DNA of 64,000 nucleotides from Deinococcales bacterium (GTDB lineage: Bacteria; Deinococcota; Deinococci; Deinococcales; JAAFIG01): NCBI GenBank assembly GCA_025352125.1, contig JANXTZ010000010.1, positions 2,118 through 66,117 of the forward strand, written 5' to 3'. Below are positions 27,320 through 29,238 of the stretch, piece after piece. Both the position numbers and the translations under genes were made by a program. The notes under the pieces are model-generated. The model searched no databases. It had not been told where the DNA came from and was given only the letters and a program-made list of their open reading frames with translations. How positions within the stretch are numbered: the first letter of the stretch is position 1; every line of letters starts with the position of its first letter.

Positions 27320-29238
27320 CAGATTCCCCCAAGAATTGTCTGCATAACACCCTGACAAAAAACGGGAGGAATAGCATTCCCGATCAGCGTGTACTGATGC
27401 GATTTTGGAAGGTGTTCGATGTGCTCGAGGGGAACGCCTTGAAGCTCAGCACACTCAAGGACTGACCGACCCGTAAAATTAATTTCTCCGGTCGCGGGGT
27501 TTGTGCTGGTATGCCCCGCGTGCTCACTGGCTGTTGGTGCTCGAGACCATTTCTTTTCCCAAGCTCCACCGGCAGCACCTCGAGCTTTGCCTTGTGAAGC
27601 TAAAACAGCATCGTGTCGGACTTTGCGTTTCTCCCCAGAATCCCATGAACCATCAGACAGGAACCTTGAACCTTTACCATCTGATGCGGTGGGCGATGAA
27701 CTGAAACTATCTGACACGTCCATAAGAGGGCTGAACAGCGTCCAGGGTGCATTAATGGTGATGATGACCCGTTTGCGCAATTGTGCAACACCAAACCACC
27801 AGGCGGGAATCAAATTGATGTCGCACGTCAAACCCAATTTTTTGCAGGCGCTGCGCAATTCCTCGAGTTCGGTCTTGCCATCGGATTCTATGGCGAGACC
27901 TGGCACGTTCTCGAGGATTGCCATTTCAGCGTATTGAACCTGATGCGCGAAATGCGCGAGGCTGTAGTAACTCGAGTGTGATTTCCCACGACGCACACGG
28001 TTCGCTGTGCTCCACGGCTGGCAGTTGTGAACAATCAGATTCTCAACAATGTAAGATTCATCATCTTGAACGCTGATGTTGAAAACCGTTCCGTGTCCAG
28101 CATCGGAATTCTCCCTGACACGCTTCCAGCCATACGAGCCTTCAATGAAAGCTTCTTTGTTGCGTTTCGGAATCGAAACAACGTAAAAGTCCCGTTGATT
28201 CACGATGCGGCCTTCAATGTTTTTCGAATCAGCAGTTTTGCAAAACCGCACGCTTGCCACAACCCCAAACGCACGTTGCGCGAGTAGGGCTATTCCCAGT
28301 GCCAACGCCCGACTTACCGTGGTCACGCGCTGATCGCCCCAGCGTGGACAAGTATACCCATCGCCGGAAATGTACCCGTTCAGTAGTGCCGCAGCAAGAT
28401 TTTGCTCAAGTTGCAATGCAAATCCTGGCACAGTTTTGCCATGCGCGTATCGCCCAAACGGAGCGAGCCAATCATGAAATGCCTTATCAAAAATGTGAAA
28501 CTTGGTCACGGTGCGTTCAACGTGTTTGGTTGGTGTGAATCCAGCCTCAAGTATTCGCGTTTCCAGTTTCTGTGCTTCTTTTGCATTGGCGCAGATGACA
28601 ACCCATCCGCTGCCACTTGCCTTATCAGTGTTGCGCCAACCGTCAGCCAAATACCTTCCAACAACCCAGTAAAAAGCCTCCGAGCGGGCATCGAGAATCA
28701 CGGATGGTAAAATTTGACCTGCCATATGAGTTTTTGTCAACGTTTCGGCGTTTCTCCACTGCGGCGCTGAAAATGTTCGCGTGTAACTACGCTTTGAGTT
28801 GTCCCAGACGCGATCCTGTTCGCGCACAAGAAATGGATGCTCGTCAGTAGTAACAACGCCAGGTGTGCCGCCCGCTTTGATACGACGAAGCTTTGCGCCA
28901 TCTCTGCTCATAAGGCTTGTAATAGGTTTCCAACTGCCAGCGTGCGTAAGAACTAAATCGCCTACGGACAACGCTTCGATTGGACGATAACCGTCAATGG
29001 TTAGCACCAAAGTTCCAGCAACAAAACATGGGAGTGATGCCCAGACGATGCGTCCTTTCAGTTCGTCGGGTTCGATGGTTTTCACATCCCGCAATTCGCA
29101 CGGCGCGGTGGGATGCCAGCGTTGGTGAGCGTCAACGGCAATCTGCCAATTGTCAAAGGATTTTTCGATCTCGAGTCCAGCCGCGATGATGCCAGCCGTT
29201 GCGCCGCCATAACCAGAGCAGAATTCAACAACCTTCAT
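27319..29238 (-). CDS. DNA (cytosine-5) methyltransferase interrupted by an intein (639-aa precursor, 304-aa predicted mature enzyme)
   Basis: Motif I FCSGYGG. Motif IV is split as ASLP | CQPWS. Motif VI is ENVPGL and motif X is GNAIPP. ATGA overlap with the upstream VRR-NUC gene. Confidence 0.85.
   Translation of the reverse strand: MKVVEFCSGYGGATAGIIAAGLEIEKSFDNWQIAVDAHQRWHPTAPCELRDVKTIEPDELKGRIVWASLPCFVAGTLVLTIDGYRPIEALSVGDLVLTHAGSWKPITSLMSRDGAKLRRIKAGGTPGVVTTDEHPFLVREQDRVWDNSKRSYTRTFSAPQWRNAETLTKTHMAGQILPSVILDARSEAFYWVVGRYLADGWRNTDKASGSGWVVICANAKEAQKLETRILEAGFTPTKHVERTVTKFHIFDKAFHDWLAPFGRYAHGKTVPGFALQLEQNLAAALLNGYISGDGYTCPRWGDQRVTTVSRALALGIALLAQRAFGVVASVRFCKTADSKNIEGRIVNQRDFYVVSIPKRNKEAFIEGSYGWKRVRENSDAGHGTVFNISVQDDESYIVENLIVHNCQPWSTANRVRRGKSHSSYYSLAHFAHQVQYAEMAILENVPGLAIESDGKTELEELRSACKKLGLTCDINLIPAWWFGVAQLRKRVIITINAPWTLFSPLMDVSDSFSSSPTASDGKGSRFLSDGSWDSGEKRKVRHDAVLASQGKARGAAGGAWEKKWSRAPTASEHAGHTSTNPATGEINFTGRSVLECAELQGVPLEHIEHLPKSHQYTLIGNAIPPVFCQGVMQTILGGI
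28024..29028 (-). mobile_element. intein with LAGLIDADG homing endonuclease domain (335 aa, residues 71-405 of the methyltransferase precursor)
   Basis: Starts CFVAGTLVLTIDG (block A, Cys1). TTDEHPF serves as block B. There are two LAGLIDADG motifs (VVGRYLADGW, LLNGYISGDGY). It ends VFNISVQDDESYIVENLIVHN followed by the +1 Cys of CQPWS. The insert contains no CTCGAG site. Confidence 0.85.

Follow-up and report, generated by a model that had tools for sequence, protein, structure and literature searches.

A gene on the minus strand of the analyzed window (the whole 64-kb stretch of an uncultured Deinococcales chromosome considered in this study) was found to encode, at positions 27319..29238, a C5 DNA methyltransferase split by an intein. 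The precursor comprises 639 aa plus stop, has a predicted mass of 70.4 kDa, and was delineated from the ORF list, the translation, and matches to the Pfam profiles DNA_methylase, Hint_2, and LAGLIDADG_3. Its N-extein (aa 1-70; 29029..29238, minus strand) carries motif I (FCSGYGG) and ends with the initial half of motif IV (VWASLP), as deduced from the alignment with intein-free homologues and from the single Pfam match obtained post-splicing. Downstream of it lies a class-1 intein of 335 aa and 37.3 kDa (28024..29028, minus strand), beginning with Cys1 and ending with His334-Asn335, followed by Cys+1; this assignment is based on the gap in nine homologues, the family alignment, an AF2 model, and Foldseek comparisons. 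The C-extein (aa 406-639 plus stop; 27319..28023, minus strand) starts at the catalytic Cys (CQPWS) and contains motif VI (ENVPGL), motif VIII (QLRKR), and motif X (GNAIPP). The insert, corresponding to precursor residues 71-405 or 1005 nt, is inserted in frame into motif IV (PCQ), separating Pro70 from the catalytic Cys, with the junctions WASLP/CFVAGT at the N-terminal and IVHN/CQPWS at the C-terminal side. A 639-aa ORF with a 335-aa insert at 28024-29028 had already been proposed in an earlier note on this sequence, and every motif quoted there was found in the translation.

The methylase gene belongs to a prophage of 37.3 kb (2532..39885), which is integrated at a tRNA-Leu gene and has an exact direct repeat of 68 bp at its two ends (attL, 2532-2599; attR, 39818-39885). 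The tRNA-Leu(CAG) gene (39829-39915) overlaps the attR repeat, and the integrase gene (38580-39809) is located inside the prophage. Besides the integrase, genes for the tape measure, portal, TerL, primase, repressor, and tail tube, together with flanking host genes, were used to identify the prophage. The earlier note had referred to a phage methyltransferase: the enzyme is indeed a C5 methyltransferase, and the phage turned out to be a prophage that is integrated into the chromosome of a Deinococcales bacterium. The methylase represents an orphan enzyme of this temperate prophage; neither a second methylase nor a second intein was found in the 64-kb window. Scanning of the region 26400-31600 for promoters and terminators revealed no excess over shuffled sequences. 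The methylase gene alone is common to the window and the contig of the closest methylase homologue (P0001).

Exact Junctions and the Predicted Spliced Methylase

Alignment to uninterrupted homologues defined the junctions of the insert exactly. All nine closer homologues, whose identity across the aligned columns was 48-79%, were devoid of the insert and read WASLP/CQPWS, with the 335 intein residues aligning solely against gaps, and the insert was missing in each of the 41 extein-family homologues obtained in the first search. Residues 71-405 are thus not a normal domain of the family. An empty site was also recognized at the DNA level, since ...TTGCCT/TGCCAACCTTGG... stands uninterrupted in the P0001 gene, whose nucleotides are 82-87% identical to those of the locus studied here around the junction. 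In a check for co-conversion, this identity near the junction (0.82-0.87) was not distinct from that of the rest of the conserved gene half.

Splicing of the translation in silico yielded the mature protein foreseen in the earlier note, namely a product of 304 aa (33.2 kDa) with ASLPCQPWS restored; the predicted sequence of the ligated junction is ...WASLPCQPWSTANR...; ...IVWASLPCQPWSTANR. The Pfam profile DNA_methylase (PF00145, cut-off 22) matched the 639-aa precursor in two stretches with 76.6 bits, and the spliced protein in one stretch with 97.7 bits, covering profile positions 1-322 of 324. The C5 motifs follow in the expected order in the spliced protein, i.e., FCSGYGG (I), PCQ (IV), ENVPGL (VI), QLRKR (VIII), and GNAIPP (X). 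Its score for TIGR00675 (dcm) was 79.4 bits and remained below the cut-off of 100.65; this shortfall is attributed to a divergent, short family member and does not contradict the membership in PF00145.

The junction Cys of the spliced methylase aligned with Cys71 of M.HaeIII, the residue mutated in the PDB entry 3ubt ('C71S mutant'), which bears out the earlier proposal that the +1 splice nucleophile is the catalytic Cys of the methylase itself. In the AF2 model of the spliced protein, pLDDT values of 89-99 were obtained over residues 1-170, junction included, and the model matched M.HhaI and M.HaeIII with a Foldseek E-value of 4e-14. The presumed target-recognition region between motifs VIII and IX (aa ~171-240) reached pLDDT values of 35-53, is of low complexity, and varies in length among homologues, so that it is uncertain how active and how specific the mature methylase would be. 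It is reasonable to assume that the unspliced precursor very likely lacks activity.

Splicing and Endonuclease Features of the Insert

The Hint N-terminal splicing region of the intein (residues ~1-105; 28714..29028, minus strand; boundary approximate) contains block A (CFVAGTLVLTIDG) and block B (TTDEH, with T61 and H64), and was assigned on the basis of a Pfam Hint_2 match at precursor residues 70-114, a beta-strand region in the model, and conservation. It is followed by a LAGLIDADG homing-endonuclease domain (residues ~106-290; 28159..28713, minus strand; boundaries approximate), which was deduced from the Pfam profile LAGLIDADG_3, conservation, and Foldseek similarity to I-DmoI. This domain features LAGLIDADG motif 1 (VVGRYLADGW; nt 28639-28668, minus strand) with the pair D129/G130, and motif 2 (LLNGYISGDGY; nt 28354-28386, minus strand) with the pair D223/G224. 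The Hint C-terminal splicing region (residues ~291-335; 28024..28158, minus strand) includes block F (D323) and block G, ending in LIVHN.

Like DNA_methylase, the profiles Hint_2 (40.8 bits, cut-off 28.4) and LAGLIDADG_3 (25.8-27.2 bits, cut-off 22.5) scored above their Pfam cut-offs. The C-terminal splicing profiles were below cut-off, with 19-22 vs. 35.8 bits for Pfam Intein_splicing (PF14890) and 13.7 vs. 15.6 bits for TIGR01443. Within an alignment of 32 intein relatives (32-59% identity), the residues C1, H64, G130, D223, G224, H334, and N335 were invariant, and T61, D129, K198, and Cys+1 were conserved to at least 90%. Likewise, D323 of block F was invariant within the intein family. The canonical Hint splicing blocks and the two LAGLIDADG motifs described in the earlier note were recovered here with all splicing residues and both Asp-Gly pairs present.

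The AF2 model of the intein was of high quality (pLDDT 96.8, pTM 0.93), and its best Foldseek matches were complete intein endonucleases, namely TliVMA (1.2e-18), PI-SceI, PI-PfuI, and PI-PkoII, the E-values for the first three ranging from 1e-18 to 1e-12. Its secondary structure displays the alpha-beta-beta-alpha-beta-beta-alpha arrangement of the pseudo-dimeric LAGLIDADG fold. In Foldseek, the model also matched I-DmoI and I-Tsp061I at E ~2e-6, as well as the endonuclease domains that PI-SceI and PI-PfuI carry. Junctions, domains, catalytic residues, fold, and the Cys71 alignment agree with the original suggestion of a LAGLIDADG intein at the catalytic Cys of a C5 methyltransferase.

Distribution and Probable Mobility of the Motif-IV Intein

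To evaluate the distribution of the intein, an exhaustive search was considered at the level of 50%-identity clusters. Among the best 134 full-length matches, 120 re-form PC[QTP]xxS across the junction, with Pro at position -1 in 126 and Cys at position +1 in 132 of them. The earlier note had speculated on a possible new intein allele at this insertion site. This idea was not borne out, since the same site is occupied in deposited phages (B22 gp50, RCS47 Dmt, and 587AP2) and in the 120 matches mentioned above. The intein itself is real, yet it is not a new type of element, and its site is common to many other phage methylases. The allele family is large, encompassing cultured phages in addition to these clusters, among them P1-like phage-plasmids of E. 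coli.

Deposited records often mis-name the genes harboring a motif-IV intein, and no characterizing paper was found, which represents a real gap in description and biochemistry. Literature searches brought up no explicit description of an intein placed at this Cys in a C5 enzyme; they returned only N6/N4 methylase inteins and a single line of a 2025 survey, which names the C-5 methylase among intein hosts.

The identity of the intein to its relatives ranges between 45% and 62%, while that of the exteins ranges between 22% and 41%. This higher similarity of the inteins suggests mobility of the element. Its spread is sporadic: extein relatives at 61-78% identity do not possess the intein, and P0094, with an extein identity of 41%, does. 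The closest intein relative on record shares 62% protein identity and hardly any DNA similarity, and no near-identical copies were found. No donor was identified when the DNA was compared with the two closest inteins (P0042 and P0094), the comparison yielding only 13-16-nt matches and one stretch of 300 nt with 69% identity over the C-junction. Furthermore, the 639-aa precursor was not on record in an exact-protein look-up, and a scan of genome representatives with the precursor confirmed no relative. Neither a megablast search with the region 26000-32000 nor a tblastn search with the spliced methylase produced a match among deposited phages, indicating that neither this prophage nor the family of its methylase is represented in the cultured-phage collection.

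These results have to be weighed against the possibility that the intein splices but its endonuclease is dead, the element being a vertically inherited resident passenger at a late stage of the homing cycle. The lack of near-identical copies (best 62%) and of the exact protein on record would be in accordance with such a state, as no ongoing spread is visible, and an endonuclease does not reveal its activity by sequence alone. However, the two catalytic Asp-Gly pairs and the conserved Lys have been retained, the intein occurs sporadically within the extein family, and the nucleotide composition points to a recent arrival (see below). Moreover, the endonuclease domain is conserved across the intein family like the splicing parts (0.53 vs. 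0.55 and 0.60), which suggests that it is not decaying. A dead endonuclease has, in our estimation, a modest chance of being the correct explanation, and a mobile intein that arrived recently is preferred.

The CTCGAG Signature and the Age of the Insertion

The palindrome CTCGAG is 22.6-fold over-represented in this genome. A proportion of 73% of all Leu-Glu dipeptides is encoded as CTCGAG, and 40 out of the 63 other six-base palindromes are strongly depleted. No CTCGAG was detected in the 1005-nt insert, six were counted in the 705-nt C-extein, and one in the N-extein, in agreement with the values given for the insert and the C-extein in the earlier note. The longest CTCGAG-free gap of the window (from 27971 to 29170) is that of the intein; other gaps of 0.9-1.0 kb occur in the prophage. 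With respect to sites at which CTCGAG can be synonymously encoded, none out of six is used in the intein, 7 out of 11 are used in the exteins, and 166 out of 318 in the prophage genes (P ~0.007; Fisher 0.013), a test that controls for amino-acid composition but rests on only six potential intein sites. The recent invasion that had been suggested from the raw counts survived this test. Palindromes that are otherwise avoided were found three times in the intein vs. 0.77 expected (P 0.04). Its GC3 of 0.47, by contrast, is only about 1.4 SD below the prophage mean. Genomes carrying relatives of the intein are not CTCGAG-rich.

The intein could also be old and vertically inherited in the methylase lineage, in which case the absence of CTCGAG would be due to amino-acid composition or chance. 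A related intein is present in P0094, a member of the same extein family (WASLP/.../CQPWSVAN), the intein offers only six potential CTCGAG sites, and the further CTCGAG-free gaps in the prophage are of 0.9-1.0 kb, all of which would be compatible with this explanation. Nevertheless, the composition-controlled test of potential sites still gave a P value of 0.007, and the flanking exteins are fully CTCGAG-saturated (7/11). In addition, the similarity between our sequence and P0094 is higher for the intein (62%) than for the extein (41%), and all closer extein relatives (61-78%) are intein-free. An old, vertically inherited intein is accordingly regarded as unlikely, and a recent horizontal arrival is favored.

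The extreme CTCGAG saturation represents an unusual built-in marker for foreign DNA in this genome, by which the intein is dated as a recent arrival. Compared with the intein, this signature is probably the more surprising feature. Literature searches on CTCGAG as an iterated palindrome returned nothing specific. The invaded enzyme might be the methylase acting on CTCGAG, the palindrome amplified in this Deinococcales lineage and its phages, or on its inner CpG, with splicing as a post-translational gate on that methylation. If true, the locus would connect a 'highly iterated palindrome' system outside the cyanobacteria with a phage methylase whose activation is conditional; this whole reading is considered a long shot. 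A tie between the methylase family and CTCGAG-rich genomes was not supported, as family members also occurred in a prophage of Deinococcus carri that has no CTCGAG at all and in GCA_004634215.1, where the density is 0.41 per kb.

Proposed Splicing and Homing Mechanism

The locus is, with high probability, a canonical class-1 intein with a double-motif LAGLIDADG endonuclease, placed before the catalytic Cys of a prophage orphan C5 methylase and of recent horizontal arrival, for which we infer both splicing and homing. In the proposed mechanism, the 70.4-kDa precursor would be translated first, and the intein Cys1 would become linked to the N-extein through a thioester. The catalytic Cys (+1) that belongs to the methylase would then attack this thioester, giving a branched intermediate, and cyclization of Asn335 would free the 37.3-kDa intein. 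Finally, an S-to-N shift would rebuild the Pro-Cys peptide bond, and the resulting methylase of 33.2 kDa would possess an intact catalytic loop (...ASLPCQPWS...). On intein-free alleles, either the precursor or the excised intein may act as a site-specific endonuclease, cutting across the motif-IV coding sequence, and repair would copy the intein in (homing). The copy residing in the prophage would have arrived horizontally, and less time ago than the host lineage takes to saturate its DNA with CTCGAG. As a candidate cleavage target, the spliced allele GGGCATCACTCCCA/TGCCAGCCGTGGAGC or the empty site of P0001 can be named.

Among all C5 methylases, no stretch is more conserved than motif IV, and a mutation of the +1 Cys would kill the methylase. 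The site may therefore serve as a safe harbor and, at the same time, as a portal into very different methylase genes. Since the +1 nucleophile is the catalytic Cys, the host cannot mutate the site to gain immunity. The locus thus provides a clean natural example of a +1 splice nucleophile that is also the catalytic nucleophile of the host enzyme. The endonucleases of this family are of possible practical use, because they should recognize the sequence that encodes motif IV in C5 methylase genes.

The proposed splicing would not take place if the insert were a splicing-dead remnant and the gene, in effect, a methylase pseudogene. This explanation could draw on the C-terminal splicing profiles, which scored below the curated cut-offs, but the reading frame is open across 639 codons, the residues for all four splicing steps are present and match the invariant columns of the family, the Hint fold was modeled at very high confidence, and the exteins retain all methylase motifs, making a remnant very improbable. 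That the insert is something other than an intein, be it an ordinary domain specific to the family, a bacterial intein-like (BIL) domain, or an endonuclease that is encoded by an intron and read in frame, can practically be dismissed: in a PDB sequence search, its first 71 residues weakly matched a 'bacterial intein-like domain' (2lwy, E 0.003), but it is missing in 41/41 extein-family homologues of the first search, Cys1 and His-Asn/Cys+1 bound it exactly at the conserved motif, the endonuclease is nested in the Hint fold as in PI-SceI, and 120 of the best 134 relatives re-form PC[QTP]xxS over the junction. BIL domains are Hint domains without a nested endonuclease, which occur in variable regions of non-conserved proteins and usually do not possess a canonical +1 nucleophile. 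The insert described here has a nested LAGLIDADG domain, a canonical HN/C+1 junction, and a position within the most conserved motif of its host protein. A class-1 intein in the catalytic loop of the methylase is the interpretation followed below.

Comparison with Known Systems

Among deposited phages, the same insertion point (...P/C-intein-HN/CQ...) was recognized in gp50 of Propionibacterium phage B22 (NC_041891), in Dmt of the P1-like Escherichia phage RCS47 (FO818745), and in Mannheimia phage vB_MhS_587AP2 (KP137435). Their inteins are also of the class-1 Hint type with double LAGLIDADG motifs and share 33-34% identity with ours over the full 335 residues. Their methylases represent canonical GxPCQxFSxAGK enzymes, which are ~28% identical to ours over short stretches only. 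These phages are of actinobacterial and gamma-proteobacterial origin, whereas the intein of this study originates from Deinococcales. The intein is unannotated in all three records, the genes being listed as 'DNA methyltransferase' or, in the case of 587AP2, as two CDS.

Closer relatives were found among the metagenomic inteins in motif IV of C5 methyltransferases (P0042-P0233), which occupy the same site with 45-62% intein identity to ours and are embedded in exteins of 22-41% identity. The closest of them, P0094 (assembly GCA_004634215.1), also displays the unusual extein signature WASLP/CQPWS.AN. Unlike the genome studied here, the P0094 genome (GC 0.63) shows no CTCGAG enrichment.

The methylase inteins of mycobacteriophages (e.g., Pacc40 gp60) are class-1 inteins with LAGLIDADG motifs as well, with 34% identity to ours over the full length. 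Their host enzyme is an N6/N4 methylase (PF01555) and not a C5 methylase, and the junction differs accordingly (...MHV/CLARGS...VVKN/CPLQFD). The +1 Cys of this enzyme is not known as a catalytic nucleophile. Mycobacteriophage methylase inteins were reported as DNMT-1/DNMT-2 (Kelley et al. 2016, PMC5050341) and as the Dorothy type (PMC9957025). They feature a patchy distribution and transfer between divergent methylases, a behavior common to the intein studied here.

At the structural level, the intein shares its two-domain architecture of a Hint fold with a nested LAGLIDADG endonuclease with TliVMA/PhoVMA (7qsu, 7qss, 7qst), PI-SceI (1vde, 1ef0, 1lws), PI-PfuI (1dq3), and PI-PkoII (2cw7). Foldseek E-values between 1e-18 and 1e-11 and TM values of up to 0.68 were obtained for these solved intein endonucleases, at a sequence identity of 10-17%. 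With 335 aa compared to 360-540 aa in the solved inteins, the intein described here is more compact, and it resides in a C5 methylase, whereas their hosts are V-ATPase, RNR, and DNA polymerase.

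Structure of the Interrupted Methyltransferase Gene

According to the ORF list and its translation, the precursor gene extends from 27319 to 29238 on the reverse strand and encodes 639 residues, residues 71–405 of which represent an insert of 1005 nt (28024–29028, reverse strand; coordinates confirmed by script). In silico splicing, i.e., removal of the insert between the flanking N- and C-exteins, resulted in a 304-aa protein in which ...VWASLP is joined to CQPWS.... Coordinates, motifs, and the 304-aa product described in an earlier note were all reproduced by script on the ORF translation, and its CTCGAG counts (none in the insert, six in the C-extein, and one in the N-extein) were exact.

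In the Pfam search, the precursor yielded DNA_methylase split over two stretches (76.6 bits), together with Hint_2 (40.8 bits; cut-off 28.4) and LAGLIDADG_3 (25.8 bits; cut-off 22.5), both above their cut-offs, and in silico splicing unified the DNA_methylase match into a single stretch covering profile positions 1–322 of 324 (97.7 bits). The C-terminal splicing models PF14890 and TIGR01443 scored below their cut-offs, which is the only soft spot of the sequence evidence. A search of the database using the spliced protein as query identified 41 relatives, the longest having at most 454 aa and the closest showing 78% identity over 100% of the query. WASLP/CQPWS (slash, junction) was present in 9/9 aligned homologues, with the 335 intein residues opposite gaps only, so that the junctions proposed earlier are exact in all nine. 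The closest homologue's gene represents the empty site in DNA (…TTGCCT/TGCCAACCTTGG…), with 82–87% nucleotide identity to the window near the junction.

An alignment of 32 intein relatives (32–59% identity) revealed Cys1, His64 (block B), Gly130, Asp223-Gly224, His334, and Asn335 to be invariant, while Thr61, Asp129, Lys198, and Cys+1 were kept in at least 90% of them; all are present in the window's copy. Asp323 (block F) was likewise invariant in the intein family alignment. By its Cys1, TxxH, block F Asp, HN, and Cys+1, the intein belongs to class 1 of the established intein classes. Mean column conservation of the endonuclease domain (0.53) was similar to that of the splicing domains (0.55 and 0.60), which counts against a decaying endonuclease. 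The AlphaFold2 model computed from the relatives' alignment (mean pLDDT 96.8, pTM 0.93) matched complete intein endonucleases best, namely the TliVMA intein (E 1.2e-18), followed by PI-SceI, PI-PfuI, and PI-PkoII, with free LAGLIDADG enzymes such as I-DmoI ranking below. Pfam matches, intein-free homologues, conserved residues, and the model fold thus agree with the LAGLIDADG intein first read from the sequence; the finding is real, and its initial interpretation is correct. Splicing, cleavage, and methylation by this gene are functions predicted from sequence.

Catalytic Cysteine and Mature Methyltransferase

The earlier note regarded the +1 residue as the catalytic cysteine. In the alignment of the spliced protein (VWASLPCQPWSTAN) with M.HaeIII (IIGGPPCQSWSEGG), the junction Cys indeed falls on M.HaeIII residue 71. 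This position is a Ser in PDB 3ubt, entitled 'C71S mutant', and PDB 1dct represents M.HaeIII 'covalently bound to DNA'. With the catalytic-loop Pro and Cys set 335 residues apart, we infer that the precursor is inactive. The spliced-protein model reached pLDDT 89–99 over residues 1–170, junction included, and matched M.HhaI and M.HaeIII (E about 1e-13). The expected target-recognition segment between motifs VIII and IX (aa ~171–240 of the spliced protein, within 27319–28023, reverse strand) obtained pLDDT values of only 35–53, is rich in Ser, Gly, Ala, and Lys, and differs in length among homologues. Such a low-confidence predicted segment is unusual for a C5 methylase.

Prophage Setting

The phage part of the window is an integrated prophage and not a free phage genome. 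Genes for a tape measure protein, portal, large terminase, primase/helicase, HNH endonuclease, tail tube, and CI-like repressor (37338–38102) flank the integrase (38580–39809) on one side, and ordinary cellular genes encoding FtsW/RodA, a LysM-M23 peptidase, molybdenum hydroxylase, ornithine decarboxylase, and an ABC binding protein lie past it. FtsW/RodA shares 94–97% identity with proteins from uncultured Deinococcales MAGs. The 37.3-kb prophage is bounded by a 68-bp exact direct repeat (2532–2599 and 39818–39885) overlapping the 3' part of tRNA-Leu(CAG) (39829–39915), and it looks intact (repressor, TerL, portal, tail tube, tape measure, and GH19-like lysin).

The segment separating the primase/helicase gene from the methylase region contains a 177-aa HNH endonuclease ORF (30678–31211, reverse strand; Pfam HNH 36.5 bits, numerous PHROG matches to HNH and EndoVII) in a CTCGAG-free stretch (30710–31639) with a GC content of 0.38–0.45. 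This ORF probably represents a free-standing homing endonuclease and also a recent acquisition.

Palindrome Landscape and Recent Arrival of the Intein

The palindrome landscape of this genome is more unusual than the intein. CTCGAG is the most frequent hexamer of the window, with 388 copies versus 17.2 expected from base composition (22.6-fold, about 6 per kb), and CTCGAG encodes 73% of the Leu-Glu dipeptides in the genes of the window. Independent loci of Deinococcales MAGs and four other (pro)phage contigs carrying the same methylase family show the same density (3–7 per kb). In contrast to this excess, 40 of the 64 six-base palindromes fall below 0.3 times expectation, 16 of them being absent (e.g., CTGCAG, CGATCG, CGGCCG, GAGCTC, GGGCCC, and AGGCCT); among 4-mers, GGCC occurs 8 times versus 305 expected and CTAG 17 times versus 248. 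The prophage contains leftover copies of depleted palindromes at ~2.3 times the density of the host part. The CTCGAG excess resembles the cyanobacterial 'highly iterated palindromes'; a CTCGAG iterated palindrome in Deinococcales was not found in the literature search.

The intein coincides with the longest interval of the 64 kb that lacks CTCGAG (27971–29170). Counting only peptide contexts able to encode CTCGAG by synonymous codons, realised sites amounted to 0/6 in the intein, 7/11 in the exteins, and 166/318 in the prophage genes (P 0.007; Fisher 0.013). Moreover, palindromes otherwise avoided by the genome occur in three copies in the intein versus 0.77 expected (P 0.04), among them the single TTCGAA and the single CATATG of the window, and genomes with intein relatives contain 0–0.6 CTCGAG per kb. 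Composition independently supports mobility and the recent invasion suggested earlier, although, with a small test of six intein sites, 'recent' means only that the intein arrived after the flanking gene had become saturated with CTCGAG.

The methylase family was also tested for tracking CTCGAG-rich genomes and did not strictly do so, which weakens a functional link between the window's methylase and CTCGAG; such a link is improbable and speculative. A Deinococcus carri prophage (BAABRP010000024.1) encodes an intein-free methylase homologue (46% identity) plus a second PF00145 gene, and holds no CTCGAG in 15.3 kb versus 5.2 expected (P 0.005), a bias opposite to that of the window's lineage.

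Mobility and Distribution of the Motif-IV Allele

Among relatives, inteins were 45–58% identical to the window's, and exteins 22–33% over about 100 residues. Within the window's extein family, all relatives at 61–78% lack the intein, and a metagenomic methylase (P0094, GCA_004634215.1) shares 41% extein and 62% intein identity with the window. This sporadic distribution, with inteins closer than their host genes, is the pattern expected from homing between divergent alleles. P0094 is the only other intein-bearing family member; two HNH_3 endonuclease genes directly follow it (SMMH01000001.1, 10001–13677), its locus being a hotspot of selfish nucleases.

The first intein search recovered about 50 relatives, nearly all in PF00145 proteins at the same site (…P/C…HN/CQ…), and tblastn against deposited phages yielded 62 records, the insertion site being examined in four of them. 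In Propionibacterium phage B22 gp50, Dmt of the P1-like phage RCS47, and Mannheimia phage 587AP2, the intein interrupts a C5 methylase at exactly the same motif-IV position. Mycobacterium phage Pacc40 gp60 differs: its intein (34% identical to the window's over the full length) interrupts an N4/N6 methylase at another junction (MHV/CLARGS…VVKN/CPLQFD). One intein lineage is thus held by two unrelated DNA methylase classes. The tblastn records include 23 others from Mycobacterium phages. The intein presumably misled the annotation of these mycobacteriophage genes, several RefSeq copies of which are labelled 'anaerobic ribonucleoside reductase large subunit' or 'helicase'. The record of Mannheimia phage vB_MhS_587AP2 (KP137435, 964–2800) divides the interrupted C5 methylase into two CDS, one named 'hypothetical protein' and the other a partial 'cytosine-specific DNA methyltransferase'; a stop 20 codons past HN/CQS in the intein's frame points to a frameshift, real or a sequencing error, just 3' of the intein.

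An exhaustive search of 1.84 billion representatives returned 814 clusters at E ≤ 1e-30. Among 134 full-length top matches, Pro at −1 was found in 126, Cys at +1 in 132, and PC[QTP]xxS restored across the junction in 120. Published studies of inteins in phage methylases have dealt with N6/N4 enzymes (PMC5050341; PMC9957025), and a 2025 actinobacteriophage intein survey names 'C-5 (IPR001525)' methylase as one of the invaded proteins, giving no site detail; an explicit description of the catalytic-Cys insertion was not found in the literature search. Given the deposited phages with the same site, the many database clusters, and the survey entry, the suggestion of a new intein allele does not hold. 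The motif-IV allele is established in databases, mentioned in the survey, and essentially uncharacterised; what is new here is a host-gene family and a bacterial lineage for an existing, widespread, little-studied intein allele.
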